A DNA stretch of 64,000 nt from an uncultured Candidatus Saccharibacteria bacterium. GTDB taxonomy: Bacteria > Patescibacteriota > Minisyncoccia > Phycocordibacterales > JACOZG01. The DNA is taken from the NCBI GenBank assembly GCA_964399075.1, contig CAYNPK010000003.1, positions 6,306 through 70,305 of the forward strand, written 5' to 3'. Numbering within the stretch: position 1 is the first letter of the stretch; every line of letters starts with the position of its first letter. The position numbers and the translations under genes are program-made. The notes beneath the pieces were generated by a model that saw only the letters and a program-made list of their open reading frames with translations, was not told where the DNA came from and made no database searches. This document shows positions 20,865 to 52,733 of the stretch, piece by piece.

Positions 20865-21812
20865 TTAAAATGGATTCTTAGCTCCACGAATCTCGAAGTG
20901 GACATGTGGGCCGGTAGAGTTACCGCTACTACCCAACAAACCAATGGTTTGACCCTGATCCACTCGTTGACCAGTTGAAACATTAGTTTGAAGTAAGTGA
21001 GCATATAAAGTTTGAGTGCTATTGGAGTGTTGAACCACAACGTAATTACCATAGCCACCATTCCAACCACCTTGGCGACTAATGATTACTGTGCCTGATG
21101 CCGAGGCCATTACCGGCGTACCAGATCGTGAGGCCAAGTCTACGGCATTATAACCATGAATACCTTGGGTCTTAACACCACCATTAATTGGTCGCAAATA
21201 GTAACCCACATAGACTGGATTAGCACCACCAGACGGCGAAGACCCCTTAGATCCCTTGGGAGTAACAGACGGTTTAACCACAGCTTGTGGCTCTATACCA
21301 CCGGGGATAATAATCGTACTGCCAACCGTTAAAGTTCTGTTAGTTAAAATATTGTAATTAACAATTTCTTCCGCATCGCCTTGGTATTTTTTAGCCAGAC
21401 TAGCAAGGGTGTCTCCCTTAATCACAGTGTGACGCAAGCCGTTTATTGGCAAAATTACCAAGACTTGGCCTTCTTTAATCGTAGCCTTGGGTGAAAGCTC
21501 GTTGGCCCAACGAATCGTATTAACAGAGACTTGATACATTTCCGCAATCTCTGACACTGTGTCACCGGGACGGACGACATAAATACTAATCTGATCATTA
21601 GATAGCGATTTATTAGAATCAGCAACGCTATGACTCGATTCCGTATCCGGCAAAAGAGCGGAGCCAACAATGGTAATTTCGCCACCACCAATCGAGGTGC
21701 TTGGAGGTAGGCCCTGAGACGGTAATAGACCAATTTGTTGAATATTGCTACCAGAAAGCGTTGCCGAAGAAGCAACGGAAGAAGAAAAAACCGTAATTAC
21801 CCCAACAAGCAA
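20865..21812 (-). CDS. LysM-domain M23 family metallopeptidase
   Basis: Two LysM-like segments (YVVRPGDTVSEIAEMYQVSVNTI; HTVIKGDTLASLAKKY) and C-terminal M23 motifs (GYNAVDLAS; HVHFEI). Confidence 0.85.
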   Translation of the reverse strand: MLVGVITVFSSSVASSATLSGSNIQQIGLLPSQGLPPSTSIGGGEITIVGSALLPDTESSHSVADSNKSLSNDQISIYVVRPGDTVSEIAEMYQVSVNTIRWANELSPKATIKEGQVLVILPINGLRHTVIKGDTLASLAKKYQGDAEEIVNYNILTNRTLTVGSTIIIPGGIEPQAVVKPSVTPKGSKGSSPSGGANPVYVGYYLRPINGGVKTQGIHGYNAVDLASRSGTPVMASASGTVIISRQGGWNGGYGNYVVVQHSNSTQTLYAHLLQTNVSTGQRVDQGQTIGLLGSSGNSTGPHVHFEIRGAKNPF

Positions 21813-26147: not shown

Positions 26148-26903
26148 GTGGCAAAAAAAATTAGTTTAATGGTGATAATCATAAGCCTTGGCTTTTTAGG
26201 CTGGCTATGGCTAGTTGGCGGAAGAGTGTTGTCTAACCAAACTTCCGTTGCGACTCCAAACGAATCAGGATTAGAAAGTCTTACCAAGTGGCAGCAAACT
26301 ATTCAAGATGATCCAAATCTGACTGATTTAGAGAAGCGGTTAAATTCATTAGTTTACCAGGCTAGCCTAAAGAAAGGGGCACTCTTGGCCGACCCAAATA
26401 TTAAAAATCCCGATTATGTACCAAGTCACCGCTATCGTCTAAATAATCTGGTAATCATTGATACTAAAGACAGAGAATTTCTTAAAAATTACGGCCAATT
26501 ATTAGCCCTCATTTTAAAATTCTACGAAGGAATGCCGGAAATAAATCCCATGAAAGTTACCCTAGACGCTCTAGAAAACGAAACGGGTAACTCACTCGAC
26601 AAAATTAGAATTTGGCGCAATCGTCACGCAACAGTAACCAGAGAATTAGCAACCATTCCAACGCCCAAAATAGTCGCTGAATATCATTTACAATTAATTA
26701 ACTCAATATTGAATTTAGCCGAATCAAATTTCCACATGGAAAATGTTTTAACAGAACCAATTTTAGCCCTGGAACATGTTAGTTCTTACCCCGCCCGAAC
26801 CATCGCCTTTAACTGGGCATTAACTGAATTAAATAAATTCTTTCGAGATAATGAGGTAAATTTTGATACAACTGATACAATTATGATACCCAGTCAATTT
26901 TAA
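26148..26903 (+). CDS. Hypothetical membrane-anchored protein (251 aa)
   Basis: N-terminal TM helix (ISLMVIIISLGFLGWLWLVGG); no family recognised; immediately upstream of the T4SS-like cluster. Confidence 0.4.
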   Translation: MAKKISLMVIIISLGFLGWLWLVGGRVLSNQTSVATPNESGLESLTKWQQTIQDDPNLTDLEKRLNSLVYQASLKKGALLADPNIKNPDYVPSHRYRLNNLVIIDTKDREFLKNYGQLLALILKFYEGMPEINPMKVTLDALENETGNSLDKIRIWRNRHATVTRELATIPTPKIVAEYHLQLINSILNLAESNFHMENVLTEPILALEHVSSYPARTIAFNWALTELNKFFRDNEVNFDTTDTIMIPSQF

Positions 26904-26915
26904 TCTGCATGTTTT

Positions 26916-29876
26916 ATGAATACAAAAATTTTTAACAAAATAAGCGCCGTCACACTAATTTTGATAATCTTAACATCTACTGGAATTACTAATGTTTCAG
27001 GTAATACGATTGAAGATCTAGAAGAAAGACGGAAAGAAGATCAACAGCAGTGCGAAGCAGAATATAGTGAAAGCGCCTTAGGAGGCTCCAAACCGCCACC
27101 AATTAAACCACCGCCACCAATTAAACCACCCTCAGAAGGAATAGTTGTGGCACTAGGAGATCCGTCAATGATGATGACACAGGATAATAATGCGTGGAGG
27201 CAGGCCTTCTCATTTTTAAATATTAAAGTCCACGCCCAAAGCGACATTTTGTCACGTGACTTATCTAGTTTCTCAAATATTGGCAGTCTAACTAGAGAAT
27301 TGCAGCAAGCTGGTGGATTTCGCCAGTTAACTAACGTCCTGGAACAAGTCCGAGGGATGAACGGGACTATTCCTCAACTTAGTAGTGGCTATGCTACCGT
27401 TGGAGACTTGGCTCGTATCCCAAATCTTAATCAAACAGGTGATGTTTTAGCTCAACTACGTCACTCGGGGGCCAATTTCAATCAATTGATTGGTGGTTAC
27501 GATAACGCTGGTGGTTTATTTAGGTCTCTTAATGAATTCGGAACTAAAGATTTGGGAAATTTAACTCAAGTATTCGGTCAAATTAATAATTTAGGTGGAA
27601 ACTTTAGTCAAATAATGAGTGGCTACCAAAACTTTGATCAAGTTTTGGGGGGATTATCAAAGATTGGAAATTTAAATGGACTAGCTAACTCTTTTGGCCA
27701 ATTAACTAACTTGGATGGCAATTTTGGCAATATGCTTCAAGGGTTCGGCAACATGAGCAACTTAATGAACGGCTTCGGAAATATCGGCAACTTAAATGGC
27801 CTAACTCAATCTCTAGGACAACTTGGAAACTTAGGGGGTAGCTTCAATGACATCTTTAAAGGAGTAGACGGTTTCAGCAATGCACTTAATTCCTTTTCTA
27901 GTATTGGTAACTTTAACGATATCGCCGGAGCGCTGGGCAACATTAGTAAAATTGGTGGTAATCTAAACCAAATACTACCAGGCTTTGACAACATTGGTTC
28001 AGTTTTCGGAAAGCTCGATGGATTAGGCTCTCTTGATCTGTCAAAATTGTCAGACTCACTGTCTAAATTAGGCAAGCTTGGTGAAAATTTTGGAGGCATT
28101 ATGGAGGCTATCCCAGGAGTAGAAAATTTTAGCGACATGTTAGACACCATGGGTTTAGATGGAGTTACAGAAACTCTCTTGGCTTCTTTCCCAGGCCTAG
28201 AATCATTATTACCTGGCGGATTACCAGGAGTTAGCGGAATAATGGCTGTTCCGGTTCGCGAAGTGGGTGATTTGTTAAATACCACCAAAAGTCTCCTAGA
28301 AGTAACAGAAGACTCTAACGAAGTTGCTCACGAAACTAGAGATCTAACCGACGAAATTAAAAGTCTGCAAATCCAAGCCTGCACCCACCTCAAAGTAATC
28401 CGCCGAGTCCAATTGGCCATGGAGGAAAAGTTTTTTGTTCACGATCCAAATGCGCGCAAGGCCGCTATTACCTTGACCTTCGAAGCGGCGGAAGAATTTC
28501 GTAAATTCATTCAAGAAGGTCGATCTGAATCACCAGTCAACACCGGTGTCAGTGGCCCCGAAGGCGAAGGGGGAGATCCTAACAAATCGCCCCTCAACTC
28601 ACCAGGAATAGAACAGGATGTGGTTATGGCCCAAAACGAGGCGGGTGCCCTCTTCAATGTCGCTCTTATTGAAGATACCTTTCCGGTATTAAAAGAAACC
28701 TTAACTGACGAGGATAAAGCGGTCTTGTACGGCGGAGGCGAGGGAGCAAGCCGAGACGCCAGTGATAATGCCAAGTTTTTCAGCGCCTTTCTCAAAACTC
28801 AAGAACCTGGCAATGGTCTAGATATTTCCCTGTTCACAGCGCTAGGCGTCCGTAGAGACATGGTCCAAACGGCGGCTGAAAATGAGAAGGTGAAATATGC
28901 TACCAATCAAGGCTATAAGGATGTAAGAGTTTGCGAACGTGGTTGGGCGGAAGATCCAGTAAGTACTAAAGAGGTTTGTCGAGGCTGGAAAACTGTCATT
29001 AACGGTAGTGATATCGCCGCCCTTAAACAAGCCTTTAACAAGAAAACCATAATTGACCTAACAGCTGATGCTGATAGCTTCCAAGAAGATAGCGCGAAAG
29101 ATATTATGGCCAAATCTCTTAAGCTCTTCCTAGACCCAACCGGAGAAAATGAGACCCCAGAAGAGAAGTGTACGGGCGCTGAACCCTGCCCAGAACCAGG
29201 CTGGGGTGGTGGTCAAAGCGCCAAACAAGCTCTAGAACAACAATATCAAGAAACGCAACAGAAAATGGAGAATGATAATCGAAGTGGTGGAGGTGGCGGT
29301 CCTGGCGAGGGACCCGGTCCCGGCGGATCTGATGTGCCAAATGACTGGAGAGATAGACCAGATAGGGCTGGAGGCCCACAATTAACACCTGGCGAAGACG
29401 GTCATCCAATAACTCCGCCAGCCTCAACAACGGGTTCCAATGGTTGGCCAAATTGGTCAGAGGATTGGAATAGGCAAGGATTCCGATTGCCAAGCAATGG
29501 CACCAGCTTCCCGGCCTGGGGGAATCCACTAAACAACAATTGGTCAACTCCAGCTAATAGACCCGGTGGGACAAATAACACTATTACCTTCGACTGGCTG
29601 AATGTTGAAATTGAGCGCTTTGAAGAAGTGCTGGGAAATGAAGGGCAAACTAAATTGGAGTGGAGAGCAAACCGGGCTTCAGTCTGCCAAGCTCGCAATG
29701 ACTGGACTGGTAGCGAGATTGAGATTAAGAACTTCAAATTATTAAACACTATTGGCAATGTTAATTTAATTAACCCGGCAGGAACTTACACTCTCCGTTG
29801 TTATAACTGGCTACTTTCCAATTATGACGAAGAAACTATTACTATTAATCCCAACCCAGTGCCAACAACAGAATGA
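26916..29876 (+). CDS. Large secreted repeat protein (986 aa); candidate surface or pilus-associated adhesin
   Basis: Signal peptide; PPPIKPPPPIKPP; a roughly 300-aa array of degenerate 20-22-aa repeats (GNLxQ(V/S)FGQ(L/I)xNLGGNFxxxxxG(Y/F)); Gly-rich C-terminal tract GGGGGPGEGPGPGG. Confidence 0.6.
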   Translation: MNTKIFNKISAVTLILIILTSTGITNVSGNTIEDLEERRKEDQQQCEAEYSESALGGSKPPPIKPPPPIKPPSEGIVVALGDPSMMMTQDNNAWRQAFSFLNIKVHAQSDILSRDLSSFSNIGSLTRELQQAGGFRQLTNVLEQVRGMNGTIPQLSSGYATVGDLARIPNLNQTGDVLAQLRHSGANFNQLIGGYDNAGGLFRSLNEFGTKDLGNLTQVFGQINNLGGNFSQIMSGYQNFDQVLGGLSKIGNLNGLANSFGQLTNLDGNFGNMLQGFGNMSNLMNGFGNIGNLNGLTQSLGQLGNLGGSFNDIFKGVDGFSNALNSFSSIGNFNDIAGALGNISKIGGNLNQILPGFDNIGSVFGKLDGLGSLDLSKLSDSLSKLGKLGENFGGIMEAIPGVENFSDMLDTMGLDGVTETLLASFPGLESLLPGGLPGVSGIMAVPVREVGDLLNTTKSLLEVTEDSNEVAHETRDLTDEIKSLQIQACTHLKVIRRVQLAMEEKFFVHDPNARKAAITLTFEAAEEFRKFIQEGRSESPVNTGVSGPEGEGGDPNKSPLNSPGIEQDVVMAQNEAGALFNVALIEDTFPVLKETLTDEDKAVLYGGGEGASRDASDNAKFFSAFLKTQEPGNGLDISLFTALGVRRDMVQTAAENEKVKYATNQGYKDVRVCERGWAEDPVSTKEVCRGWKTVINGSDIAALKQAFNKKTIIDLTADADSFQEDSAKDIMAKSLKLFLDPTGENETPEEKCTGAEPCPEPGWGGGQSAKQALEQQYQETQQKMENDNRSGGGGGPGEGPGPGGSDVPNDWRDRPDRAGGPQLTPGEDGHPITPPASTTGSNGWPNWSEDWNRQGFRLPSNGTSFPAWGNPLNNNWSTPANRPGGTNNTITFDWLNVEIERFEEVLGNEGQTKLEWRANRASVCQARNDWTGSEIEIKNFKLLNTIGNVNLINPAGTYTLRCYNWLLSNYDEETITINPNPVPTTE

Positions 29877-32008
29877 ACTCTTTCTCTAGCAAAAAAATAA
29901 TTACGGGCCTGATGCTATTGTTGGTAATCACAACAAGCTTAATGATTCCGGCCCAAGTCTATGGAAATGAAGATGGAGGTGGACTACTACATAATGCATT
30001 GGGTGCCACAATGGCTCGATGGTGGTGGGGAGTAGAAAACCCAGCTGATTTTGGTGGTGGGCCAGGGGCCGGGGAACTGATAGCACAATCAATTTTTGGT
30101 AAAATCGCTGATATTGTTGTAGAGGTTGTTGCTTGGATACTGTCAATTTTTGTTTGGGTATTAACCGTCTTATTATGGATAGTTAACGAATTATTTAATA
30201 AGGTGGTTGATCTCTCTGTGCGGGAATTTAGTGACTTTGCCAAAAGGGGGGCAGTGAAGGACGCTTGGACAATAATGCGAGATGTGGTTAACTTCTCTCT
30301 AATTTTCGCTCTGGTGTACGCAGCTCTGGGAATTATTCTTGACCTCTCTAAGGTGGACGGCAAACGCCTAGTGATCAATATAATTATTGTGGCGATGCTG
30401 GTTAACTTCAGCGCCTTCTTCACCCACATCGTCATTGACGCCTCTAATGTAATCGCTAACCAATTCTATGTTGCCGCCGGTGGTGGTACAACCGCTGGCG
30501 GATCACCAAATCTTAGTGGTAAATTCCGAGACGCCTTCATGATGGACTTCACGCAAAGCACCCTTAGCAATGTTCCCGACATGCCACCAGGCACAGAAAA
30601 AGGAGCTCACAGCCTCTTCGGAGTCATTGCTTCCCAATTCTTCCAATCCATAATGGTTTTGGTAACTATGTTGGTCCTTCTGGCCGGAGCAGTGATGTTC
30701 TTGATCCGAGTCATTAAGTTATTATTGGTCATCGTCTTTTCACCCATTGCCTTCTTGGGCTTTGCTCTATCTGGCCGAATGGGAGAAATAGCCCAAACTT
30801 GGTACAAAACCTTGATTAACGAGGCCCTCTGGGCGCCAGCTTTCATGTTCATGATCTTTCTTAGTATTAAATTTATTACGGTGTTCCCAATGAAACCAAC
30901 CAGTCAGATGAAAAGTATTTTACAGGTGGGAATTGGGGAGTGGGTAACAAGTGCTGCTGCGTTAGTTCTAAGCTTCGCCTTTGCTAACGGCATGATGATC
31001 GGCTCAATAATCGTCGCCAAAAAATTTGGTGCGGCTGGGGCAGATGCAGGAACAAAGTTTGGTGGACGTATGATAGGAGGAACTCTGGGTGTTGGTAAAA
31101 GAATAGCTGGAAAAACGGGGGGGTGGGTAGGTAGAAGAATGGCCAATGCGCCTGGAGTAGGAAGAGTTAGTGGAGCACTTGGAAGATGGGGTGGATCACT
31201 TAGAGGATCGAGAATTGGAGCTGGGGTTGGTTCGGCGGCCAGTGTTGTAAGAGAAGAATTTGGCTTAGTCGGAAGTGGGCAAAGAATGAGAGAGGCTCTT
31301 ACAAGCCCACTTAGAACGGCCAACGAACTAATAGCCAAAGCAACAAAACCTTACGGAGTAGAAGTTGCCCCTCTTGGTCGAACCAAAGACCAAGAAAGAG
31401 AGCTGGCAAAAGCCCTTGAGGAAGATCGCAAAGCACAAGAAAGGGCTGATCTCCGCAAGAATGAGTCTGAACTGAAGGCCGTTCTTGGAGATAATGCCAA
31501 AGTTAAAGCAATCTTAGATAAAGTTAGCGATAAACAAATCGCTGATATGGATGTGGAAATCCTAATGAAAATTGCGCCACAGTTAAAGGGCGGGCAAATG
31601 AAAGCCGTTAGTGACCGAAAAGATTTAACCCCCAAACAAAAGAATGATATTAAAGAGGCCAACATCAAACCATTAATGGACGCCATTGCTGGACATAGTG
31701 CTGCTGTCATCGGAAATAATGCCACTGCCATCGGAAATAATGCCACCATCATCGCCACTGAAATCTCTGGAAGGAAACCGGAAGATGTTGCTAAACTCTC
31801 CAAAGACATCCTGACAAATATTGAAGTAATAAGAAATCTTACTCCCCGCATCTTACTTAAGGCAATTGATGAGTTGAGCACAGCTGATCAAAGGACTATT
31901 AGAACTGCGATAGAAACTGCCGTAGCGAATCTTGGAGCTTCACCTCAACAACAAGCAGCTAAAGATTGGTTAGATAATGATTTCGTCGGCAAAACATTTG
32001 GGCACTAA
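29873..32008 (+). CDS. VirB6/TrbL-like polytopic membrane protein (711 aa) with a C-terminal coiled-coil extension
   Basis: Signal/TM segment followed by about 6 long hydrophobic helices at aa 70-380, then a Gly-rich and coiled-coil soluble tail; 4-bp overlap with the upstream gene; lies in the VirB4 cluster. Confidence 0.45.
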   Translation: MNSFSSKKIITGLMLLLVITTSLMIPAQVYGNEDGGGLLHNALGATMARWWWGVENPADFGGGPGAGELIAQSIFGKIADIVVEVVAWILSIFVWVLTVLLWIVNELFNKVVDLSVREFSDFAKRGAVKDAWTIMRDVVNFSLIFALVYAALGIILDLSKVDGKRLVINIIIVAMLVNFSAFFTHIVIDASNVIANQFYVAAGGGTTAGGSPNLSGKFRDAFMMDFTQSTLSNVPDMPPGTEKGAHSLFGVIASQFFQSIMVLVTMLVLLAGAVMFLIRVIKLLLVIVFSPIAFLGFALSGRMGEIAQTWYKTLINEALWAPAFMFMIFLSIKFITVFPMKPTSQMKSILQVGIGEWVTSAAALVLSFAFANGMMIGSIIVAKKFGAAGADAGTKFGGRMIGGTLGVGKRIAGKTGGWVGRRMANAPGVGRVSGALGRWGGSLRGSRIGAGVGSAASVVREEFGLVGSGQRMREALTSPLRTANELIAKATKPYGVEVAPLGRTKDQERELAKALEEDRKAQERADLRKNESELKAVLGDNAKVKAILDKVSDKQIADMDVEILMKIAPQLKGGQMKAVSDRKDLTPKQKNDIKEANIKPLMDAIAGHSAAVIGNNATAIGNNATIIATEISGRKPEDVAKLSKDILTNIEVIRNLTPRILLKAIDELSTADQRTIRTAIETAVANLGASPQQQAAKDWLDNDFVGKTFGH

Positions 32009-32017
32009 TTAAATATT

Positions 32018-32476
32018 ATGGAATACACTAAAGAACAATTAGCAGAAACTTACAGAAAATTACCCCTCAAACTTAAGGAGGCAATTGGAAATATTGATTC
32101 ATTGGAGATATTAAAACGCATAGCTGAACAGTTTAATTTGCACATTGATCAATTAGGCAAACTATCTGACGAGGTTGGCTTGGTAGTGTTTGGTTTGAGT
32201 AATTTTTCTGTCTTTACTGACAAAATTCAAATTAGTCTAAGTCTGGACCAAGACACGGCTCAAAAAATCGCCAAAGAAATTAATGAACAAATCTTCTTAC
32301 CTATTAGAGAGGCTCTTAAAGAAACGACAGGAGAACAAACCCCAAACGAACAAACAGAAAAAACTGGTGACATTTTCGATCAACAAATGAGTCAAATGTT
32401 TAGTTTGCCCAAAGAGGAACCAGCGGAAGAGGCGATAGAAGAAGCTCCAGACCCTTACCACGAGCCGATAGAGTAG
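32018..32476 (+). CDS. Acidic hypothetical protein (152 aa)
   Basis: ORF in an operon-like array; no family recognised. Confidence 0.4.
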   Translation: MEYTKEQLAETYRKLPLKLKEAIGNIDSLEILKRIAEQFNLHIDQLGKLSDEVGLVVFGLSNFSVFTDKIQISLSLDQDTAQKIAKEINEQIFLPIREALKETTGEQTPNEQTEKTGDIFDQQMSQMFSLPKEEPAEEAIEEAPDPYHEPIE

Positions 32477-32481
32477 GGGGC

Positions 32482-32521
32482 ATTAGGGATTAGGGATTAG
32501 GGATTAGGGATTAGGGATTAG
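32482..32521. repeat. Heptanucleotide microsatellite (ATTAGGG) x5 plus a partial copy
   Basis: cattagggattagggattagggattagggattagggattag read directly from the sequence; located between the acidic ORF and the four-helix-bundle gene. Confidence 0.9.
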
Positions 32522-32549
32522 TTGTTAGGAGGGGGTTGGAGATTGAAAA

Positions 32550-32912
32550 ATGATTACTTCTTATAAAGACCTGATAGTTTGGCAAAAATCGATGGATTTA
32601 GTGACTTTGATATACAAAATTACTGACAAATTTCCCAAGACGGAAATCTACGGCTTAACCTCGCAAATGAGAAGATGCGCCGTATCCATACCATCCAACA
32701 TCGCTGAAGGTAGCGCCCGTAAGACCAGGAGAGATTACGGCCAATTTCTCCATATCGCTTATGGATCTGGCGCCGAACTAGAAACACAGGCGGAAATTGC
32801 CAAACGGCTGGGTTTTAATAACTCTCTGGATTATAATAAGATCAACCAATTATTGATTGAGGTGATGAAAATGCTTAATACTTTAATTGGTAAACTAGAA
32901 CCTAAACTCTAA
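32550..32912 (+). CDS. Four-helix-bundle protein of the 23S rRNA intervening-sequence protein family
   Basis: 120 aa; YKDLIVWQKSMDLVTLIYKITDKFPKTEIYGLTSQMRRCAVSIPSNIAEG is a typical family signature. Confidence 0.8.
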   Translation: MITSYKDLIVWQKSMDLVTLIYKITDKFPKTEIYGLTSQMRRCAVSIPSNIAEGSARKTRRDYGQFLHIAYGSGAELETQAEIAKRLGFNNSLDYNKINQLLIEVMKMLNTLIGKLEPKL

Positions 32913-32928
32913 ACACTAGAACCTACCC

Positions 32929-33339
32929 ATGCAATTCCAAGTACCACAATTTATTGAGATTGAAGACAAAATTTTCGGCCCTCTGACCTTCAAACAATTT
33001 GTTTATCTAGCCGGAGGAGCCGGTATCGCCTTTATGGAATGGGTTTACATCCCCTTCAAAATTATCGGCATTTTGTTTGTCATCCCCACTATTGCGTTTG
33101 CTCTGGCTCTAGCGTTCTACAAAGTAAACAACAGGCCATTTATTCTAGCCCTAGAAGCCGGTTTGCGCTACGCTCTGACGCACAAACTCTACATTTGGCA
33201 AAGACAGCCGGAATTAAAAAAGGTGGAAAACTCAACCGATCAAACCCAAGCGCGCCCGATGATGAAAATTCCTAAATTGTCAGAGAGTAAATTGAAAGAT
33301 TTGTCTTGGAGTTTGGATGTGAAAGAGACAATTAAGTAA
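32929..33339 (+). CDS. PrgI/VirB3-like small two-TM membrane protein
   Basis: 136 aa; hydrophobic hairpin (YLAGGAGIAFMEWVYIPFKIIGILFVIPTIAFALALAFY) in the position expected for a VirB3/PrgI-type component upstream of VirB4. Confidence 0.45.
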   Translation: MQFQVPQFIEIEDKIFGPLTFKQFVYLAGGAGIAFMEWVYIPFKIIGILFVIPTIAFALALAFYKVNNRPFILALEAGLRYALTHKLYIWQRQPELKKVENSTDQTQARPMMKIPKLSESKLKDLSWSLDVKETIK

Positions 33340-33360
33340 GATAGATGATACAATATCATT

Positions 33361-34020
33361 ATGATGCAAACGGCGATTAAAAATTCGGCCAGGGCGACTC
33401 AAGACTTTGTTCCCATTCGCGAGATCCGTGATGGCATTGTCATCCTCAAGGACAATGGTCTGCGCTTAGTTCTGCTGGTTTCTTCTCTTAACTTCGCTCT
33501 CAAGTCAGACGATGAGCAAACGGCTTTGTTATTGCAGTTTCAAAACTTCTTAAACTCGCTTGATTTCCATATTCAGATTTTTATTCAATCGCGACGGCTA
33601 GATATTAAGCCATATTTACGGGTTCTGGAGGAAAGATTAACCGCTCAAACTAACGACTTATTGAAAGTGCAAACCAGAGAATATATCGAGTTTATCAAAA
33701 AATTTACGGAAACGACTGACATTATGTCTAAAAGCTTCTTCGTTGTGATCCCTTACGACCCGGCGGTCTTAACCAGCGTTAAGAAGTCCGGACCCTGGGC
33801 TCGTTTATTCCCAGGCAAAAAGCAAGATCAAGCGATCAGAAATCAAGCGGAGCATGACGAGTTTTCTCAATACCGAATGCAATTGGAGCAGAGGGCGGGA
33901 GTAATCGCCCAAGGGCTAGGTCGTTTGGGTCTAAGGGTGGCGGAGTTGGGGACGGAAGAGTTGGTCGAGCTCTATTTCAAAATGTTTAATCCGGGCGAAA
34001 CAGATATTCCAACAATTTAA
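33361..34020 (+). CDS. Hypothetical cytoplasmic protein (219 aa) of the T4SS-like cluster
   Basis: ORF immediately upstream of VirB4; could be an unfused VirB4 N-terminal-like domain (inference). Confidence 0.4.
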   Translation: MMQTAIKNSARATQDFVPIREIRDGIVILKDNGLRLVLLVSSLNFALKSDDEQTALLLQFQNFLNSLDFHIQIFIQSRRLDIKPYLRVLEERLTAQTNDLLKVQTREYIEFIKKFTETTDIMSKSFFVVIPYDPAVLTSVKKSGPWARLFPGKKQDQAIRNQAEHDEFSQYRMQLEQRAGVIAQGLGRLGLRVAELGTEELVELYFKMFNPGETDIPTI

Positions 34021-34043
34021 ATCAAATTAAATTAATAATTACT

Positions 34044-35858
34044 ATGGCCTTTTGGAACAAAACTAAAACTAACCCAATCACGCCGGTTCTCCCTCAAGAC
34101 ATTTACCAGATGGGAACCCTAGAGTTGCGAGATATCATTGCTCCCTCGGCGCTTAAAATCAGCCCTAGAATTCTAAATCTTGGCGACAAATTGGCCCGCA
34201 CTTTCTATGCCATTTCTTACCCGCGATTTCTAACTAGTGATTGGTTTTCACCAATTATTAACCTAGATAAAGTATTTGACGTCTCTATTTTTGTTAATCC
34301 AATTGATAGCTCTATTGCCCTACGCCAATTGGAGAAAAAGGTGGCCGAAGTCCAAAGCCAAATTACTTTACGAGAAGAAAAGGGGATGGTTCGAGATCCG
34401 ATACTAGATACTGCCTACGAAGATATAGAAAATTTGCGCGACTCCCTACAACAAGCTAGGGAAAAAATCTTCGACGTTGGTTTGTATATCACCCTGTATG
34501 GCGAAACGGAAGATGAGTTAGACAAAACCGAGTCAGAAGTTAAGGGTATTCTGGATGCCAAATTAGTTTATCTCAAGCCAGCCTTATTCCAACAAGCCGA
34601 AGGCTTCAAGAGTGTCCTGCCTCTAGCCGGAGATGAGTTGGGAATTACTTACAAACTCAATTCCTCGCCACTGTCATCGCTCTTTCCCTTCGTCTCTTTC
34701 GATCTAACCTCCAACAAGGGGATCCTCTACGGCATCAATCGCCACAACTCCTCTCTGGTGTTATTTGATCGCTTTTCTCTGGAAAACTATAATTCGGTGA
34801 TTTTTGCCAAATCCGGCGCCGGTAAATCTTATACAACAAAATTAGAAATTCTAAGAAGCCTGATGTTCGACACCGATGTTATTGTCATTGACCCAGAACG
34901 AGAATATGAATTTTTGGCCGAAGCTGTTGGTGGGCGTTACTTTAATATTTCTCTAACTTCTGAACATCATATCAATCCTTTCGATCTGCCTTTCCCACGA
35001 GAAGACGAGTCACCGGCTGATGTCTTGCGTTCTAACATTATTAACTTGGTTGGCCTTTTCCGCTTAATGTTGGGGGGTTTAACACCAGAAGAAGACGCAA
35101 TCATAGACAATGCCATCACAGAAACTTACGCCCTTAAAGATATTACTCCAGACACCGACTTTACCAACAAACCGCCACCTTTATTATCTGACTTGGAACT
35201 AGTCTTAGCTGGAATGGAAGGTGGAGAATCCCTAGCCCAACGACTACTGAAATATACCCGAGGCACTTGGGCCGGCTTTATGAACAAGCCAACCAATGTT
35301 GATATCAATAAAAAACTAATTATCTTCTCCATCAGAGATATGGAAGACGAGCTTAAGCCCATTGCTATGTATATCGTTATGCATAATATCTGGACCTCAA
35401 TCAGACGAAATCTAAAAAAACGATTATTGGTAGTCGATGAGGCTTGGTGGATGATGAAGTCTAAAGATACGGCCTCTTTCTTATTTTCTTTAGTCAAAAG
35501 GGGAAGAAAATACTACCTGGGAGTGGCAACTATTACCCAAGACGTGGGCGACTTCTTAAAATCCGAGTATGGCCTGCCAATTATTACCAACTCCTCAATC
35601 CAATTACTACTTAAACAGTCACCGGCTTCTATTGATTTGGTCCAACAAACTTTCCAATTAACCGACGAAGAAAAGTTTCTACTCCTAGAATCAAGTGTGG
35701 GTGAGGGAATCTTTTTCGCCGGCTTAAAGCACGTAGCTATTAAAATTATCGCTTCTTATACGGAAGATCAAGTGATCACCTCTGACCCATCTCAAATTTT
35801 AGCCATTAAACAAGCCAAACAAGACTTAGAAGCTTTAGGTGAAAATAATGGCCAATAA
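34044..35858 (+). CDS. virB4: VirB4/TraC/CagE-family type IV secretion ATPase
   Basis: 604 aa; Walker A FAKSGAGKSYTTK, Walker B LLVVDEAWWMM, C-terminal TQDVGDFL motif. Confidence 0.85.
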   Translation: MAFWNKTKTNPITPVLPQDIYQMGTLELRDIIAPSALKISPRILNLGDKLARTFYAISYPRFLTSDWFSPIINLDKVFDVSIFVNPIDSSIALRQLEKKVAEVQSQITLREEKGMVRDPILDTAYEDIENLRDSLQQAREKIFDVGLYITLYGETEDELDKTESEVKGILDAKLVYLKPALFQQAEGFKSVLPLAGDELGITYKLNSSPLSSLFPFVSFDLTSNKGILYGINRHNSSLVLFDRFSLENYNSVIFAKSGAGKSYTTKLEILRSLMFDTDVIVIDPEREYEFLAEAVGGRYFNISLTSEHHINPFDLPFPREDESPADVLRSNIINLVGLFRLMLGGLTPEEDAIIDNAITETYALKDITPDTDFTNKPPPLLSDLELVLAGMEGGESLAQRLLKYTRGTWAGFMNKPTNVDINKKLIIFSIRDMEDELKPIAMYIVMHNIWTSIRRNLKKRLLVVDEAWWMMKSKDTASFLFSLVKRGRKYYLGVATITQDVGDFLKSEYGLPIITNSSIQLLLKQSPASIDLVQQTFQLTDEEKFLLLESSVGEGIFFAGLKHVAIKIIASYTEDQVITSDPSQILAIKQAKQDLEALGENNGQ

Positions 35859-36414
35859 TAATTTTGGCGAAAACTACGGATCACTTTCCGAAGGAGATAC
35901 AGAAAAGTCACACATAGACCTCGAGAGGAGGAACCGCAACATGGGGGCAGATGTGATAAGAAATGACCGTGGAGCAATGCCGGACAATCAAAAAAGATTG
36001 AGAAGGCAAGCGACCCCAACGAAAGATGAAAACCAGCAACAAAAAAAGGGTGGGCGTTCAACATCGAACACGGACGGCAAGAAAGATAAACAAAAAGAGC
36101 GAATCACCACCACCACTGCGATGTTAATGGTCGGCTTAGCTATCTTTTTTGACATATTAAGCATTATCCCTGTCGTTAATTGGTTTACCGCCATCGCAGC
36201 TTGGCTTTGTTTTTTTATTTGGTTTGCGGTTTTAGAAGTTCGATTTATGACCATTAAGCGTGCACTTCCAGCAATAATTAGCTTTATTGTTGAATTAGTA
36301 CCCATTTTAAGTATCATACCGGGGTTAACTCTTGGTATTATTGTGATCATTATTATGATAAAATTAGAAGACAAAACAGGAATCAAAATACCACTATCAA
36401 CTATCGAAAAATAA
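35839..36414 (+). CDS. Membrane protein with basic N-terminal region and 3-4 TM helices
   Basis: 191 aa; K/R/Q-rich N-terminus, then hydrophobic helices; overlaps the virB4 stop. Confidence 0.45.
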   Translation: MKIMANNNFGENYGSLSEGDTEKSHIDLERRNRNMGADVIRNDRGAMPDNQKRLRRQATPTKDENQQQKKGGRSTSNTDGKKDKQKERITTTTAMLMVGLAIFFDILSIIPVVNWFTAIAAWLCFFIWFAVLEVRFMTIKRALPAIISFIVELVPILSIIPGLTLGIIVIIIMIKLEDKTGIKIPLSTIEK

Positions 36415-37143
36415 ATGGGCAAAATTATTATTACAATCAGTTTAATTTTTCTCGCCACTACCCAAGCAACAGCGACCACAGAAAACTTTGTGGATTTAGC
36501 GTGGGAAACTAGTGCTTATGTACCCTTGTTTTATCAAGGACATAGTCAAGTTGTCCCCGGTCAGCAAGTTAAAGTAATCGCCCTACCACAAATCCAAACG
36601 AACAATAAAAAATTGCCTGATCAAGAGTTGATATTTGAATGGTTTAAAGACGGTCGAAAATTAAGCTCTTTTTCCGGCCAAGGCAAGAATAAAATCACCT
36701 ATATTTCTGATACTGGGGGTAATAATATAATTGATATAATAATAAAGACTTTGGATGGACGGGAGAAAGCCAATCGGCGTTTAAGTGTGCCCATTAATTC
36801 TCCCAAAATTGTCCTCTACGAAGAAGATCCCCTGACAGGAACACGAACCGGCCAAGCAATCAGCGATATTTACCACTTAAACAAACCAGAAGTGACAATT
36901 CTGGCTGAACCTTACCTTTTCCCCACAGCAACTGTTTTAAATAACACTCTGAACTTTGAGTGGCTAGTAAACAATCAAAAAATTGTGACTAATCCAGACG
37001 ACCAAAGACTAGTTACTTTCGTTGCTCCGGAGGGGGGAATATCTGATCATCAAATTCAAGTTACCGCTAGTAATTTAGCTAACTTTATTCAAACAGCTAA
37101 AAAAGCCTTAACGATTAGTTTACAACCAGAATTTATTTTTTAA
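36415..37143 (+). CDS. Secreted hypothetical protein (242 aa)
   Basis: Signal peptide MGKIIITISLIFLATTQATA; beta-rich composition. Confidence 0.45.
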   Translation: MGKIIITISLIFLATTQATATTENFVDLAWETSAYVPLFYQGHSQVVPGQQVKVIALPQIQTNNKKLPDQELIFEWFKDGRKLSSFSGQGKNKITYISDTGGNNIIDIIIKTLDGREKANRRLSVPINSPKIVLYEEDPLTGTRTGQAISDIYHLNKPEVTILAEPYLFPTATVLNNTLNFEWLVNNQKIVTNPDDQRLVTFVAPEGGISDHQIQVTASNLANFIQTAKKALTISLQPEFIF

Positions 37144-37147
37144 AATC

Positions 37148-37564
37148 ATGCTAACAATTTGGGAAAAACTAAGTGAGCTAATCTACATCACACTCTACAC
37201 CCGAGTATTTGCCTCAAACACGGTTACATTAATCGAGCCAACCATAACTGGTGATGGCACGATCGGTAGCGCAGGAACAAATAATTTTACGGATATTGCC
37301 GCGTATCTGAAAGCAATTTATCAAAATATTATTAGGGTCGTTGCTCTGATTGCCGTTTTGAGTCTCGCTTGGTGGGGTTTAAAATATATTACTAGCAATA
37401 TTCCGGGGATGAAAGCGGCTAGCAAAGAGCGTTTGTTTGATATTTTGGTGGGAATATTAGTTTTATTGGGTGCTTATTTAATCTTAAAAACTATCAATCC
37501 AAATATCTTCAAGGATCTGTCATTTGGTGAATTTTTTAACACAACGCCACCACCTACATCATGA
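37148..37564 (+). CDS. VirB2/TrbC-like pilin candidate (two hydrophobic helices)
   Basis: 138 aa; IIRVVALIAVLSLAWWGLKYI and FDILVGILVLLGAYLILKTI helices separated by a short loop, as in T4SS pilins. Confidence 0.45.
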   Translation: MLTIWEKLSELIYITLYTRVFASNTVTLIEPTITGDGTIGSAGTNNFTDIAAYLKAIYQNIIRVVALIAVLSLAWWGLKYITSNIPGMKAASKERLFDILVGILVLLGAYLILKTINPNIFKDLSFGEFFNTTPPPTS

Positions 37565-38874
37565 ACAAAAATCTGACAATCATTAGTATTATTGCTTTAA
37601 TTTTAATTCTAAGTGGCTTCTTTGCCATCCGTCTCCTTGGATCACCGGCTGAATTGTGGTCTCTGTTGCAAAAAACTATTACTAGAGCTCCAGAACAAAC
37701 TACTGTTCCGGAAGAAGCGCCACTGCCTAATAGATTTTTCCCAACCGGCGATCCGCGGGTCATTGTGCCACCAGCGCCAATAGATATTCCTGATGGTACC
37801 GACGGAGAACCCTTGCCTATTCCGCAATTAGATAACCGCTTTCGGCAAATTTCAAGCCAGCCGGTAGTTAATGTCGTCCAAGTTGGCGATGGCGCCACCA
37901 GTCAAATTATTTATCTGGACAAAGCAACCGGCCACCTCTACTCGGTGGGGGAAATGGGGCTTGCTAAACGCCTTTCTAACACCACTATCCCTAAAGTCTT
38001 AGAATTAGTTGCCGGTCAAAGTGGAGAACAATTACGCTTGATTGCTCGCTATCTAAAAGATGGCCGACTACAAAACTTTTCTGGCACACTACGAACACAA
38101 ACTAAAACTGAAGTAGAGACGGAAACAGAAATAGAGACAGAAGAACCGGGAGAAGTAGAAGGAATTCTCTTAACTTCAACCATGTCACAAGTAGCTGTTT
38201 CTCCTCAACAAGATAAAATTTTCTATTTGAACCAATCCGGAGACGGAACCACCGGTATTCTGGCCAATTTTGATGATACTGATCGTCAAACCATCTTCAC
38301 CCACCCACTTACAGAGTGGCAACTTGATTGGCCAAGTAACTCAACTGTAGCGATCACCACCAAACCAAGTTCGCAACTCCCGGGCCTACTCTATGTGGTA
38401 GATCTACAAACCAAAAATCTAAGGCGTCTGATTGGAGAAGTGCCCGGCTTGTCAGCCAAAGTAAGCCCTGACGGGTCTAAAGTGCTCTACAGTGGTAGTA
38501 GTAGCGCCACTGGCCCATTTATTGCCCTCTACGACATTAAACAAGATCTCATTGACAGGCTTCCTAATAGAACCCTAGCTGATAAATGCACCTGGTCTAA
38601 GGATAATATAACCATCTACTGTGGTATTCCCAAAACACTGCCAGCTAATGATTACCCGGAAGATTGGTACAGTGGCGAAGTCTCTTTCAGTGACAACTTA
38701 TGGAAAATTAATACTCAAACCGGTAGCGGTGAAATTATTTTTAATCCAGAACTTAGTGGCAGTGGAGAAATCGACGCGGTTAATCTAACCCCCGACAAGA
38801 CTGAAGGTGCTTTATATTTAATAAACAAAAGAGACGCTACTTTGTGGGAACTAGATCTCCAGTCAACTTTTTAG
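37561..38874 (+). CDS. Secreted or membrane-anchored beta-propeller-like protein (437 aa)
   Basis: N-terminal TM/signal segment, Pro-rich linker, acidic TETEVETETEIETEEPGE tract, TolB-like repeats (SPDGSKVLYSGSS; LTPDKTEGALYLINKRD). Confidence 0.45.
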   Translation: MNKNLTIISIIALILILSGFFAIRLLGSPAELWSLLQKTITRAPEQTTVPEEAPLPNRFFPTGDPRVIVPPAPIDIPDGTDGEPLPIPQLDNRFRQISSQPVVNVVQVGDGATSQIIYLDKATGHLYSVGEMGLAKRLSNTTIPKVLELVAGQSGEQLRLIARYLKDGRLQNFSGTLRTQTKTEVETETEIETEEPGEVEGILLTSTMSQVAVSPQQDKIFYLNQSGDGTTGILANFDDTDRQTIFTHPLTEWQLDWPSNSTVAITTKPSSQLPGLLYVVDLQTKNLRRLIGEVPGLSAKVSPDGSKVLYSGSSSATGPFIALYDIKQDLIDRLPNRTLADKCTWSKDNITIYCGIPKTLPANDYPEDWYSGEVSFSDNLWKINTQTGSGEIIFNPELSGSGEIDAVNLTPDKTEGALYLINKRDATLWELDLQSTF

Positions 38875-40186: not shown

Positions 40187-41551
40187 ATGTTAGAAAACAA
40201 AGAACTATGGGAGCGTGCTCTAGTAGATATTGAAATAAATACTTCTAAGGCCAACTTTGGCACCTGGTTTAAAAATACTCAAATCACTAAACAAGACAAC
40301 GGAACCGTCTATATTGGTGTGCCAAATACTTTCGTGAAAGACTGGCTTTTGAATAAATTCCACAAACTTATCTTGAAGTCATTACGAGATTTAGATCCAG
40401 AGGTTAGAGCCATAGAATATGTGGTGATAAAAAACGAAGACTTGAATAAAAATCAAGTATTTAGGCCCGAACACAAGCATGGAATCGACAGTCAGTTGAA
40501 TTTACCAGAGCTCTATATCAACCGCGAAGACAACCTTAATCCCAAATACGTCTTCGAAACTTTCATTGTTGGACCATTTAACGAACTTGCTCACGCCGCC
40601 AGTCAAGCGGTACTCAACAAAATTGGGGCAATTTATAACCCACTTTTTATTTACGGCGGAACTGGTTTGGGTAAAACCCACCTAATTCAAGCCGTTGGCA
40701 ACCATGTCAAAGAGCGTTTCCCAGGAAAAAAAGTGTTTTATGTCACCTCTGAACAATTTGTTATTGATTATGTCAATTCAGTCCAAAACAACCGCGGTAA
40801 CGGCAATCAATTTAAAGAAAAATATCGCAAATATGATGTTTTAATCATGGATGATGTCCAATTCTTTTCTAACAAAGACAGAACCCAGGAAGAATTATTC
40901 CATTTGTTTAATAATTTTTACGAAAACAATAAGCAAATTATCTTTTCTTCTGATAAAGCGCCAAAATATATCTCAAACCTAGAAGAACGCCTCCGTTCGC
41001 GCTTCGAGGGGGGGATGATCGTCGATGTAGCTAAACCAGACTATGAATCACGACTAGCAATCTTAAATAGTAAGACCAAGGGCCACCCCTTCCGTCCCGA
41101 ACCAGAGATATTAGAGTACGTAGCAAATGTTATTCAAGACAACATTCGCGAGCTAGAGGGAGCTCTAAACTCTATCATTTGCCAATCCGAACTAAAAAAC
41201 CGCAATCTAACCTTCCAAGAGATTAAAACGTTAGTTAAAAACAACATCAAACCAAAGCGCCTGGTTTCAATTAAAGGAGTGGCTAATGTAATAGCTAATT
41301 TCTACAACATTCATGAGAAAACCCTCTACGACAAAACTCGAAAAAAAGAAGTGGTGAAACCAAGACAAGTAATGATGTACTTATTACGAGAAGATTTCAG
41401 CACCTCTTACCCTTATATCGGACAAAAAATGGGTGGTCGAGATCACACCACAGTAATCCACGCTTACGAAAAAATAAAACACGATCTAAAGGACGATACG
41501 ATGTTGTCACAAGAGGTCGAGCAAATTCGTGCTATGTTGTATAATGAGTGA
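40187..41551 (+). CDS. dnaA: Chromosomal replication initiator DnaA
   Basis: 454 aa; AAA+ Walker A GGTGLGKTHL, Walker B LIMDDVQF, C-terminal DNA-binding domain (HTTV signature). Confidence 0.9.
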   Translation: MLENKELWERALVDIEINTSKANFGTWFKNTQITKQDNGTVYIGVPNTFVKDWLLNKFHKLILKSLRDLDPEVRAIEYVVIKNEDLNKNQVFRPEHKHGIDSQLNLPELYINREDNLNPKYVFETFIVGPFNELAHAASQAVLNKIGAIYNPLFIYGGTGLGKTHLIQAVGNHVKERFPGKKVFYVTSEQFVIDYVNSVQNNRGNGNQFKEKYRKYDVLIMDDVQFFSNKDRTQEELFHLFNNFYENNKQIIFSSDKAPKYISNLEERLRSRFEGGMIVDVAKPDYESRLAILNSKTKGHPFRPEPEILEYVANVIQDNIRELEGALNSIICQSELKNRNLTFQEIKTLVKNNIKPKRLVSIKGVANVIANFYNIHEKTLYDKTRKKEVVKPRQVMMYLLREDFSTSYPYIGQKMGGRDHTTVIHAYEKIKHDLKDDTMLSQEVEQIRAMLYNE

Positions 41552-45886: not shown

Positions 45887-46390
45887 TTATTCTAATATTG
45901 TGGATAAACGAGCCAGGGTGGTAAGCCCAAGAGCGATGGCGTCATATTCGTCATCATACTTCGGCACTTTTTCTAGAGTAACTATCCGCTTAACCATTTC
46001 TGTAACCTGGCTTTTGTCGGCTCGGCCGTGACCAGTAATAGTGCTTTTAATTTCCAATGGGGTATATTCAATAATTGGAAGCTCATGCTTGCTCGCTAGA
46101 TACAGCAACATTCCTCTTACCTCACTAACTGCGCTGGCAGTTTTTTTGTTTGAGGCAAAGAATAGTTTTTCGATCGCCACTAATTGTGGTTTGTATTTTT
46201 TGATTAGTGATTCAAATTCATCGCCCAAGATTACTAGGCGTTCCGCGAAAGATTTTGTTCGGGGAGTAATAATGCAGGTTGAATAAACAATTTTTTCATC
46301 TAATAAGTTTTTCTCTACCACAGCGGCCCCTAGGCGCTCATATCCGGGATCTATCGCTAGTACGCGTGTTGAATCTTTTGTTTTATTCAT
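45887..46390 (-). CDS. ruvC: Crossover junction endodeoxyribonuclease RuvC
   Basis: RVLAIDPGYERLGAAVVE (catalytic Asp) and later acidic residues; start taken at MNKTKDS (the track ORF starts earlier). Confidence 0.8.
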   Translation of the reverse strand: MNKTKDSTRVLAIDPGYERLGAAVVEKNLLDEKIVYSTCIITPRTKSFAERLVILGDEFESLIKKYKPQLVAIEKLFFASNKKTASAVSEVRGMLLYLASKHELPIIEYTPLEIKSTITGHGRADKSQVTEMVKRIVTLEKVPKYDDEYDAIALGLTTLARLSTILE

Positions 46391-46940
46391 CTTTATTTTC
46401 GACCTCGAGATTTGAGGCATTAGTCCAAACGTTTTTAACATCCTCATGTTTGGTTAGATTCTCGATTAGGCTGCTTAATTTATTAATATCATCATTAGTT
46501 ACTTCAATTGTCGTTATAGATTGCCAGCCATCTTCAGTTTTTTTAAAAAACCAAATTGCCGCGCCTGGTGTAGCTAAGCTGGCGTTATTAATTGCCAGTA
46601 GATGTTTAATTTCTTGCCCGGTGCGATTGCGATTATTAGTGATGCCCTCAATAATTAGAGCCACTCCGCTTGGGCCATAAGCCTCATAGATAACTTCTTC
46701 TAAGTTGTTTTTATTGTCACTACTAGCGTTTCTGATTGCTCTCTCGATGGTGTCATTGGGTATATTTTCTGCTCGCGCCCTTTCTATCGCCTGGCGGACA
46801 GTAGGTAGATTGTGATCGCCGTTCGCCTTCTTTATTTCCATCGTGATTGTCTTCGCCAATAAGGAAAAGCGCCGACTTCGGCGGATATCTTCAGCTACCT
46901 TTCTTCTTTTTATTTGCGTCCACTTATTGTGTCCGGCCAT
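46383..46940 (-). CDS. YebC/PmpR family DNA-binding transcriptional regulator
   Basis: MAGHNKWTQIKRRK N-terminus is the family hallmark; conserved position between ruvC and ruvB. Confidence 0.8.
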   Translation of the reverse strand: MAGHNKWTQIKRRKVAEDIRRSRRFSLLAKTITMEIKKANGDHNLPTVRQAIERARAENIPNDTIERAIRNASSDNKNNLEEVIYEAYGPSGVALIIEGITNNRNRTGQEIKHLLAINNASLATPGAAIWFFKKTEDGWQSITTIEVTNDDINKLSSLIENLTKHEDVKNVWTNASNLEVENKDE

Positions 46941-50162: not shown

Positions 50163-50361
50163 GTATGGAGTTACTGAAGTTTGGCCAGGACTTTGACAAT
50201 CGAATAGGATGAAGAGGTAAAAATAGAGAAATCTATTGTTATTCCTCAACGTCTGAATAAGAGATAGCGTAAAAACCTTAACCTTGTTCAGATTTGAGGG
50301 ATCGCAATGTTTGCGGTTCTTGGTTCCCGCCAACCGATGGCGAAGTGGCAAGGAGAGCAAC

Positions 50362-50934: not shown

Positions 50935-51079
50935 TTCGCCAGGGTTGTGAGTCAGCCAAAAACTCTCATGGGAAACTGGAGAAGCCCATCTAATTCTTCT
51001 CCTCTCTGTTGAGTTCTTGAGAAGGTCTTGAGAACTCATTGAGAGGTTTGGGACCACTTGAAAAAGAAAGGAGTGTCCC

Positions 51080-52657: not shown

Positions 52658-52677
52658 AGAAGATGAAGTAGTTCTTT

Positions 52678-52733
52678 AGGAGGAGGGCGAGAGAGAATCG
52701 AAAAACGATCTCTCGTTCTCCTCCTCCTTTTTG
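52678..52733 (+). terminator. Rho-independent terminator
   Basis: Long GC-rich hairpin aggaggagggcgagagagaatcg-aaaaa-cgatctctcgttctcctcctcc followed by ttttt. Confidence 0.65.

Follow-up and report, generated by a model that had tools for sequence, protein, structure and literature searches.

The Patescibacteria make up a very large and mostly uncultivated share of bacterial diversity, and they live attached to the cells of their hosts. The closest described relative of the gene cluster considered here is the secretion system of type IV (T4SS) known from these bacteria since 2023-2025 (Wang 2023; Quinonero-Coronel 2025). The cluster was found in a stretch of 64,000 nucleotides (nt) from an uncultured Candidatus Saccharibacteria bacterium (assembly GCA_964399075.1, contig CAYNPK010000003.1, positions 6,306 to 70,305), which we refer to as the window. 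It occupies positions 26148-38874 of the window, with all of its genes on the + strand, and it is centred on an ATPase of the VirB4 family. No novel type of system comes to light here; the cluster is the known "Patescibacteria T4SS" in its Paceibacteria form, correctly recognized.

Quinonero-Coronel et al. (2025; PMC12102498) described this system across ~2,500 virB4 loci of Patescibacteria, in which the VirB4 proteins form a monophyletic clade that is sister to the MPF-FATA group. They list TrsD as the commonest virB4-associated component, place PrgI/VirB3, VirB6 and VirB2-like pilins near virB4, and report that VirB8 and VirB1 are rarely detectable and that relaxases are almost absent (109 in the whole Patescibacteria dataset). 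They locate the T4SS genes of the Paceibacteria near dnaA, dnaN, rnpA and ksgA, and those of the class ABY1 near comF, recG and radA. For a Saccharibacterium, Wang et al. (2023; PMC10633639) showed that a homologous cluster, which encodes no recognizable coupling or relaxase proteins, is essential to growth as an epibiont. A review from 2025 (PMC12857230) concurs on both points and speculates that the T4SS is a conduit with a pilus, by which exchange with the host takes place, and a preprint from 2026 describes tubular structures at the interface between Patescibacteria and host and links VirB4 to the acquisition of macromolecules (RNA).

Our results favour the interpretation of the cluster in the window as a chromosomal, non-conjugative T4SS of the Patescibacteria, i.e., a translocon derived from the MPF-FATA type, with a split motor, a pilin and lineage-specific partners, that would serve exchange with a host. 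We put the probability of this interpretation at roughly 85%. An earlier reading of the same DNA from its sequence only (the sequence-only reading) had likewise proposed a T4SS that is centred on VirB4, does not conjugate and resembles those known from Gram-positive lineages and the candidate phyla radiation, and this proposal is supported by the homology of the components, by synteny in relatives and by the lack of a relaxase or type IV coupling protein (T4CP) nearby. The likeness to the Paceibacteria system as described in PMC12102498 extends to a TrsD-like gene adjoining virB4, to a PrgI/VirB3 protein, a putative VirB6-like protein and a VirB2-like pilin encoded nearby, to the lack of a neighbouring relaxase or T4CP, and to the location beside ksgA, rnpA, dnaA and dnaN. 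Nothing essential differs from that description; its sections considered here give no role to genes without a profile match, and the window adds six further genes as conserved members of the block.

The open reading frame (ORF) at 34044-35858 encodes the central and C-terminal part of a VirB4-family ATPase of 604 amino acids (aa), which matches the conju_CD1110 model (NF045971) at 359 bits (cut-off 325) over positions 183-733 of 752, as well as the Pfam families P-loop_TraG, AAA_10 and DUF87. Both of the motifs quoted when this protein was first called a genuine VirB4 ATPase are present: the Walker A sequence AKSGAGKS at residues 255-262 (nt 34806-34829) and the Walker B sequence VVDEAWWMM at residues 463-471 (nt 35430-35456). 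Database homologues number more than 8000; the best 120 are all ~590-625 aa long and 79-100% identical to the window protein, and every named one among these 120 is from the Patescibacteria. The ORF just upstream (33361-34020, 219 aa) had been counted among several "extra" membrane and secreted proteins. Instead, it is a TrsD-like protein that represents the N-terminal domain of VirB4 as a separate gene product, since it matches positions 98-233 of the NCBIfam model VirB4_plasma (Mbov_0397; E 5e-11), positions 2-109 of CD1110 and positions 7-142 of 201 of TrsD/TraD. Judged from these matches, VirB4 is of the Gram-positive CD1110/MPF-FATA type and is encoded by two genes, as in pGO1-type systems. 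Separate ORFs of ~214 aa (TrsD) and ~612 aa (VirB4) occur in all 47 full-length related loci (see below); because these loci and the best 120 homologues share the arrangement, the split is neither a frameshift nor a sequencing artefact. Adjacent to the split VirB4 genes lies an ORF for a protein of 136 aa with two transmembrane (TM) segments (32929-33339), whose identification as PrgI/VirB3-like holds up at 37.1 bits against PF12666 (cut-off 27) and at 46.7 bits for its family consensus.

The candidate pilin and the candidate channel protein were more difficult to assign, and in both cases the family was more informative than the individual sequence. The predicted VirB2/TrbC-type pilin (37148-37564, 138 aa), which is encoded by a single copy in the window, scores below the cut-offs of TrbC (E 5.8e-4) and T4SS_pilin (E 8.2e-4) with its own sequence. 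Nevertheless, all 42 of the 42 members of its family match the T4SS_pilin model PF18895 (best E 3.7e-10), and for the consensus of the family the score is 39.7 bits (cut-off 26.6), so that the earlier designation of this protein as VirB2/TrbC-like is borne out. A search of the family profile against PDB sequences found nothing real. The protein g711 (29873-32008, 711 aa) contains ~8 hydrophobic segments within residues 1-380, followed by a hydrophilic tail of ~330 aa that is Gly/Ala-rich and Lys/Glu-rich. The consensus of its family matches TrbL (PF04610) at E 9.7e-6 and 25.9 bits, a score equal to the cut-off, over positions 25-205, i.e., 181 of the 215 profile positions, and TrbL is matched by 6 of 38 g711 relatives. 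Comparison with PrgH of pCF10 by hhalign yielded a weak match over the last TM segments (probability 22%, P 1e-3), and a search of the family profile against PDB sequences again found nothing real. With moderate confidence, and at the level of the family, we assign g711 as an extended VirB6-like protein. The sequence-only reading had likewise called this polytopic protein VirB6/TrbL-like; by its own sequence, g711 is without a family match.

The genomic context of these genes provides the second line of evidence. Upstream of the cluster are uvrD, ksgA and a DUF192 gene, and downstream are yidC and rnpA on the minus strand, followed by dnaA (40187-41551) and dnaN; flanked in this way, the cluster sits at the chromosomal origin of replication. 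The other genes of the window are housekeeping genes, as far as the ORF scans indicate. When a single genome of each species was scanned, 572 related loci were obtained, from which the best 80 were taken; 47 of these have full flanks, and conservation was counted within these 47 by tblastn and iterative profile searches. The titles of the best 80 loci include Vogel-, Kaiser-, Nomura-, Taylor-, Campbell- and Zambryskibacteria (Paceibacteria/Parcubacteria), generic names (Patescibacteria group bacterium, bacterium) and ~30 metagenome-assembled genomes called "uncultured Candidatus Saccharibacteria". The order is constant in 47 of 47 loci: ksgA, g251, a large variable protein, g711, g152, PrgI, TrsD, VirB4, (g191), g242, pilin, g437, yidC, dnaA and dnaN. 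This is far beyond chance, and loci with this order include ones titled with each of the six Paceibacteria/Parcubacteria names above. By tblastn, VirB4, the query by which the loci were found, occurs in each of the 47, and profile searches detected PrgI, TrsD, g242 and g437 in 47, g711 and g152 in 46, the pilin in 45, g251 in 43 and g191 in 21. The flanking genes are therefore conserved in order across relatives, in answer to the synteny comparison that the sequence-only reading had called for, and VirB4 is not the sole component with detectable homology, since PrgI, the pilin and the g711 family also match known families.

Conservation across the locus is very uneven. The median identity to the window protein is 77% for VirB4, a figure somewhat inflated by the choice of loci for their VirB4 similarity, 57% for DnaA, 56% for TrsD, 51% for PrgI, 48% for KsgA, 43% for DnaN, 41% for YidC and 28-33% for g711, g242, g437, the pilin and g152. 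Among the loci titled Kaiser-, Campbell-, Nomura-, Taylor-, Vogel- and Zambryskibacteria, VirB4 is 75-87% identical. It is unusual for a secretion ATPase to exceed the replication initiator DnaA in conservation. The constrained motor and the fast-evolving surface parts fit a machine that is inherited vertically, and the fixed order and position of the genes in 47 related Paceibacteria genomes argue that the cluster is a vertically inherited chromosomal system and not a mobile element. Neither a variable insertion site, an adjacent integrase nor a patchy distribution was seen in these 47 genomes, in which the position is fixed.

Comparisons with better-known systems place the cluster among the relatives of Gram-positive conjugation machines. 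In common with the MPF-FATA systems of pCF10 (prg/pcf) and pGO1/pSK41 (trs), it encodes a VirB4 of the CD1110 family, PrgI and, upstream of VirB3-VirB4, a putative VirB6-like protein; with pGO1 it shares the separate TrsD protein. In contrast, pCF10 encodes, besides a relaxase, PrgK (VirB1-like), PrgL (VirB8-like), PcfC (VirD4) and the LPXTG adhesins PrgB and PrgC; none of these types was found in the window cluster; conversely, pCF10 is without a pilin, whereas the window cluster encodes one of VirB2 type and is chromosomal and not mobile. The integrative and conjugative element (ICE) of Mycoplasma carries a module of a pilin-like protein (Mbov_0395), a TM protein (Mbov_0396) and VirB4 (Mbov_0397). 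The pilin consensus from our loci matches Mbov_0395 in NCBIfam at 1.4e-6, and TrsD and VirB4 match Mbov_0397 at 5e-11 and 9e-75, respectively, but all of these scores lie below the equivalog cut-offs and the Mycoplasma module belongs to a mobile ICE. The Mycoplasma case shows that pilin-like proteins exist in other wall-less or monoderm relatives of the MPF-FATA type. The cluster SEML1_0006-0019 of Southlakia epibionticum (PMC10633639) also has Gram-positive-like subunits and pilin genes and lies near the start of the chromosome, and its components were essential in transposon sequencing; it differs in having six divergent pilins and adjacent peptidase/lysozyme genes, compared with the single pilin and no in-cluster hydrolase of the window.

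Six conserved partners of the T4SS genes, namely g251, the core family of g986, g152, g191, g242 and g437, have, by our searches, no known family. The largest is g986 (26916-29876, 986 aa), predicted to be a secreted, fast-evolving protein. A hydrophobic, signal-like N-terminus is followed by the linker PPPIKPPPPIKPP (nt 27093-27131) and by a degenerate, Gly/Asn/Leu-rich repeat region at residues ~180-470 (nt ~27453-28325), which has a 10-residue period and a 40-residue super-period (BLOSUM autocorrelation 0.29 and 0.40, compared with a maximum of -0.15 in 200 shuffles). No tandem repeat exists at the DNA level of the gene apart from an 18-nt duplication encoding the PPPIK linker. Next comes a conserved, non-repeat core of ~230 aa (residues ~515-745 by alignment, approximately nt 28458-29150), and the C-terminal part consists of a Gly/Pro-rich linker and an unmodelled, beta-rich domain of ~100 aa. 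The motifs of the core family are WINxGFxGxPxF, LCxPF, GGW, NNPxGAY, GxGFL..C and TPGxxI, several of which are lost or degenerate in the window copy.

This divergence affects how g986 can be detected. By tblastn it was found in only 4 of the 47 loci, and a profile built from typical members of the core family alone does not detect it. The connection is made by intermediates: g986 matches the ORF of locus L004 in phmmer at 6e-91, the L004 ORF matches the family profile at 3.5e-13, and the ORFs of L006 and L007 link g986 to the family likewise. The core recurs in 56 ORFs of 323-1353 aa, each located directly upstream of a g711 homologue, and among 1.84 billion clusters at 50% identity the family numbers 5943 representatives with a threshold of E<=1e-3 and 3773 with one of E<=1e-30. 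The database matches are all labelled "hypothetical", and searches of Pfam, NCBIfam and PDB sequences returned no match to the core family. We attempted to derive a fold for the core from an AlphaFold2 model of a relative, P0121 (predicted local distance difference test (pLDDT) 67.5), in which the core is mainly helical at medium confidence and a C-terminal beta-sandwich is confident. The attempt failed, as Foldseek matched only the sandwich, to Ig-like modules of adhesins, carbohydrate-binding modules and carbohydrate-active enzymes in the PDB (E ~1e-5 to 1e-6). No LPXTG motif was seen in g986, nor any known adhesin or stalk domain in Pfam/NCBIfam. The description of this protein as a giant repeat adhesin therefore stands in part: the N-terminus is of the secreted type and the protein repeat is real, but the repeats are lineage-specific and flank a core that is the conserved part, and adhesion is inferred. 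A role of the variable ends in adhesion is plausible as a reasonable guess, and the conservation of the core suggests a structural role for the g986 family in the apparatus.

Among the other partners, g251 (26148-26903) is predicted to be a membrane-anchored, all-helical protein; its AlphaFold2 model (pLDDT 77, predicted template-modelling score 0.67) consists of an N-terminal TM helix and a helical bundle. No match was found by Foldseek in the PDB below E 0.1 or by sequence in Pfam, NCBIfam or PDB, and on these grounds it was rejected as a VirB8 or VirB5. A database copy of g251, P0168 (244 aa), begins 7 residues after the listed GTG start, which makes the ATG at Met8 the probable true start. 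The protein g152 (32018-32476, 152 aa) is small and acidic, contains no TM segment and is presumably cytoplasmic; neither its sequence nor its family consensus has a significant match in Pfam/NCBIfam. The gene for g191 (35839-36414, 191 aa), where it occurs, always follows VirB4 directly, and its product, with a basic N-terminal region and ~4 TM segments, also matched no family in Pfam/NCBIfam. The secreted protein g242 (36415-37143, 242 aa) is predicted to be all-beta and probably consists of tandem Ig/PKD-like domains: its family profile finds an Ig-like domain of Hoc in the PDB (E 9e-4), and its consensus has weak PKD/Ig matches. It was rejected as a VirB8, given a probability of 0.3% in hhalign of the family against PrgL. 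The last gene of the block encodes g437 (37561-38874, 437 aa), which had been described as a beta-propeller-like secreted protein and is indeed predicted to be an N-terminally anchored, TolB-like propeller; its family profile finds TolB (1e-4) and designed propellers (8e-6) in the PDB, and the consensus matches the TIGR02800 TolB propeller (1.6e-6) and PD40 repeats. A Cys pair, C343 and C354, is conserved in g437. The 3' end of its gene and that of the convergent yidC overlap by 38 nt (38837-38874).

All eleven of the co-directional, partly overlapping ORFs that the sequence-only reading had listed at 26916-38874 exist exactly where it placed them, with the packing of an operon: three junctions overlap (by 4, 20 and 4 nt) and the remaining gaps are 0-23 nt, with one exception of 73 nt. 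Two corrections are nevertheless required. The conserved block starts one gene further upstream, at 26148 instead of 26916, because g251 is co-directional and lies upstream in 43 of the 47 full loci. Moreover, the 120-aa ORF at 32550-32912, ahead of which the 73-nt gap lies, encodes a 23S rRNA intervening-sequence protein (four-helix bundle, bAvd-like; PF05635, 135.6 bits), which is unrelated to the T4SS. Only 8 of the 47 loci contain it, in one of three places (before PrgI, between PrgI and TrsD, or between TrsD and VirB4); on account of this rarity and variable position, it is a sporadic insertion. This gene alone in the cluster has a canonical AGGAGG ribosome-binding site, and it appears to move independently. 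Scans for promoters and terminators gave no signal above chance level.

Several components were sought and not detected. In agreement with the earlier statement that the window encodes no VirD4, relaxase or VirB11, no T4CP (VirD4/TcpA), relaxase or VirB11 was present among the 54 ORFs scanned, which include every larger ORF of the 64-kb window. A cluster of the type IV pilus or type II secretion kind was rejected, as no PilB/GspE ATPase, PilC or prepilin-type pilin is encoded within 26148-38874. The sole ATPase of the T2SSE family is a PilB-type protein of 563 aa (48184-49875, minus strand; 400 bits, with an MshEN N-terminal domain), so that a type IV pilus motor of the PilB/GspE type lies 9 kb away from the T4SS; its neighbours are ruvB, a 185-aa ORF (46383-46940) and ruvC. 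The nearest hydrolase to the T4SS is an M23 peptidase with LysM (20865-21812, minus strand), 5 kb upstream, a possible stand-in for VirB1; a peptidase of this kind is found at the corresponding place in only 3 of the 47 relatives, and its position is not conserved.

A number of points weigh against our interpretation. In addition to the inflated VirB4 identity mentioned above, these are that g711 has no match of its own in Pfam/NCBIfam and owes its VirB6 call to a consensus at the threshold and to 6 of 38 relatives; that no ORF of the cluster matches the VirB8, PrgL or TcpC models; and that no VirB1-like hydrolase is encoded within 26148-38874. The absence of a T4CP and a relaxase is a finding for the 64-kb window, and VirD4 homologues are distant from virB4 in many Patescibacteria (PMC12102498). 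Finally, the data on essentiality come from the Saccharimonadia, a class other than the Paceibacteria.

The rival that best survives these considerations, distinctly unlikely as we consider it, is a T4SS of the competence type for the uptake of DNA, comparable to ComB of H. pylori or the archaeal Ced system, that would take in DNA of the host or the environment and so provide a nucleotide-auxotrophic cell with a source of nucleotides. As with ComB, neither a relaxase nor a T4CP was found in the window; the location of the ABY1 genes near comF, recG and radA and the preprint that connects VirB4 with RNA acquisition and tubular interface structures might also be cited in its favour. VirB4 does match CedB and CedD (8.6e-9 and 5e-3), but these weak, partial matches cover only the P-loop core, and CD1110 is by far the best match. 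No com genes flank the cluster in the window, and deletion of comEC in S. epibionticum ended competence and not viability, whereas the T4SS is essential (PMC12857230).

That the cluster is the mating-pair-formation module of an integrated conjugative element still capable of DNA transfer, its relaxase and coupling protein being encoded elsewhere, is highly improbable. In its favour, VirB4 scores above the cut-off for a conjugative-ATPase equivalog (CD1110), distant VirD4 homologues as mentioned above are common in Patescibacteria, and a tyrosine recombinase is encoded in the window at 13890-14786 (minus strand). However, this recombinase is 12 kb away and has an XerC/D-type architecture; no integrase, att-like sequence or cargo gene adjoins the cluster; 47 genomes from several lineages of family or order rank share an identical ksgA and yidC-dnaA context; the contrast between an ATPase at 77% and surface parts at ~30% identity fits long vertical descent; and relaxases are as scarce in the Patescibacteria as cited above. 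A decaying remnant, in which a broken VirB4 gene lies by chance beside unrelated membrane proteins, might be suspected from the two reading frames of VirB4 and the several neighbours without a family, and is refuted by the conservation data, since every relative keeps the split, as do over 100 database homologues of equal length, and the split matches the TrsD/TrsE arrangement of pGO1-type systems, all ORFs are intact, and purifying selection on the ATPase is very strong.

If the cluster is, as we believe, a T4SS for exchange with the host, the apparatus would have originated from Gram-positive (MPF-FATA) conjugation machinery. By homology, its membrane translocon would consist of the VirB6/TrbL-like channel g711 and PrgI/VirB3, its motor of the two-gene VirB4 (the TrsD-like N-terminal domain and the ATPase), and one VirB2-type pilin would complete the recognizable parts. 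The extracytoplasmic proteins g251, g986, g242 and g437, the polytopic membrane protein g191 and the acidic cytoplasmic protein g152 are placed in it by synteny only. The ATPase might energize the assembly of a short pilus or of a conduit that spans the envelope, the variable surface proteins might coat this structure and contact the host cell, and proteins or other macromolecules might then be moved between the host and its ultra-small epibiont. We infer that the machine is non-conjugative, as neither a relaxase nor a coupling protein lies nearby. We further propose that the T4SS serves a core, near-essential function, which would account both for its place near oriC and for an ATPase that is more conserved than DnaA.

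Some other features of the window are recorded here for completeness. A GC-rich island at 50300-53800 (50-69% GC in 200-nt windows, compared with ~42% elsewhere) shows positive GC skew. Ribosomal RNA was rejected as its source, as this stretch has no Rfam match even at E<=1. The ORFs of the island are short and without a Pfam match; they include 50362-50934 (+), with a P-loop-like GPPRSGKS, 51881-52657 (+), and 53263-53802 (+), whose product is secreted and Pro/Val/Arg-rich. Situated between the PilB-like gene and an ORF (53882-54313) preceding polA, the island resembles DNA of foreign or otherwise unusual kind. A distance of 62 nt separates two tRNA-Pro genes that are divergent (TGG, minus strand; GGG, plus strand), and a tRNA-Arg/tRNA-Gly pair is also present (positions 7180-7387 and 11992-12206). 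Pfam yielded no match at E<=1e-3 for three sizeable ORFs, at 1346-2698 (-; 450 aa), 9116-9979 (-; 287 aa) and 17319-18563 (+; 414 aa).

The window provides a clean and complete Paceibacteria example of the system, with five recognizable T4SS genes (for four components) and six conserved partners, among them the large, unannotated family of the g986 core, which is invariably encoded directly upstream of the VirB6-like gene. A bolder proposal, which we regard as rather unlikely, is that the six partners constitute a Paceibacteria-specific extracellular module that replaces VirB1, VirB5, VirB8 and the Gram-positive adhesins and that, together with the pilin, builds a host-piercing conduit for the import of host macromolecules such as RNA, nucleotides or lipids; if this were true, the T4SS would be an essential feeding organelle, and not a device for secretion or conjugation. 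The T4SS of the Patescibacteria is the first that has been shown to be essential for its own carrier. The combination of a conserved ATPase with fast-diverging surface parts is what would be expected of an indispensable machine with outer parts that track different hosts, and the divergence of the surface parts indicates the proteins in which a basis of host specificity might be tested.

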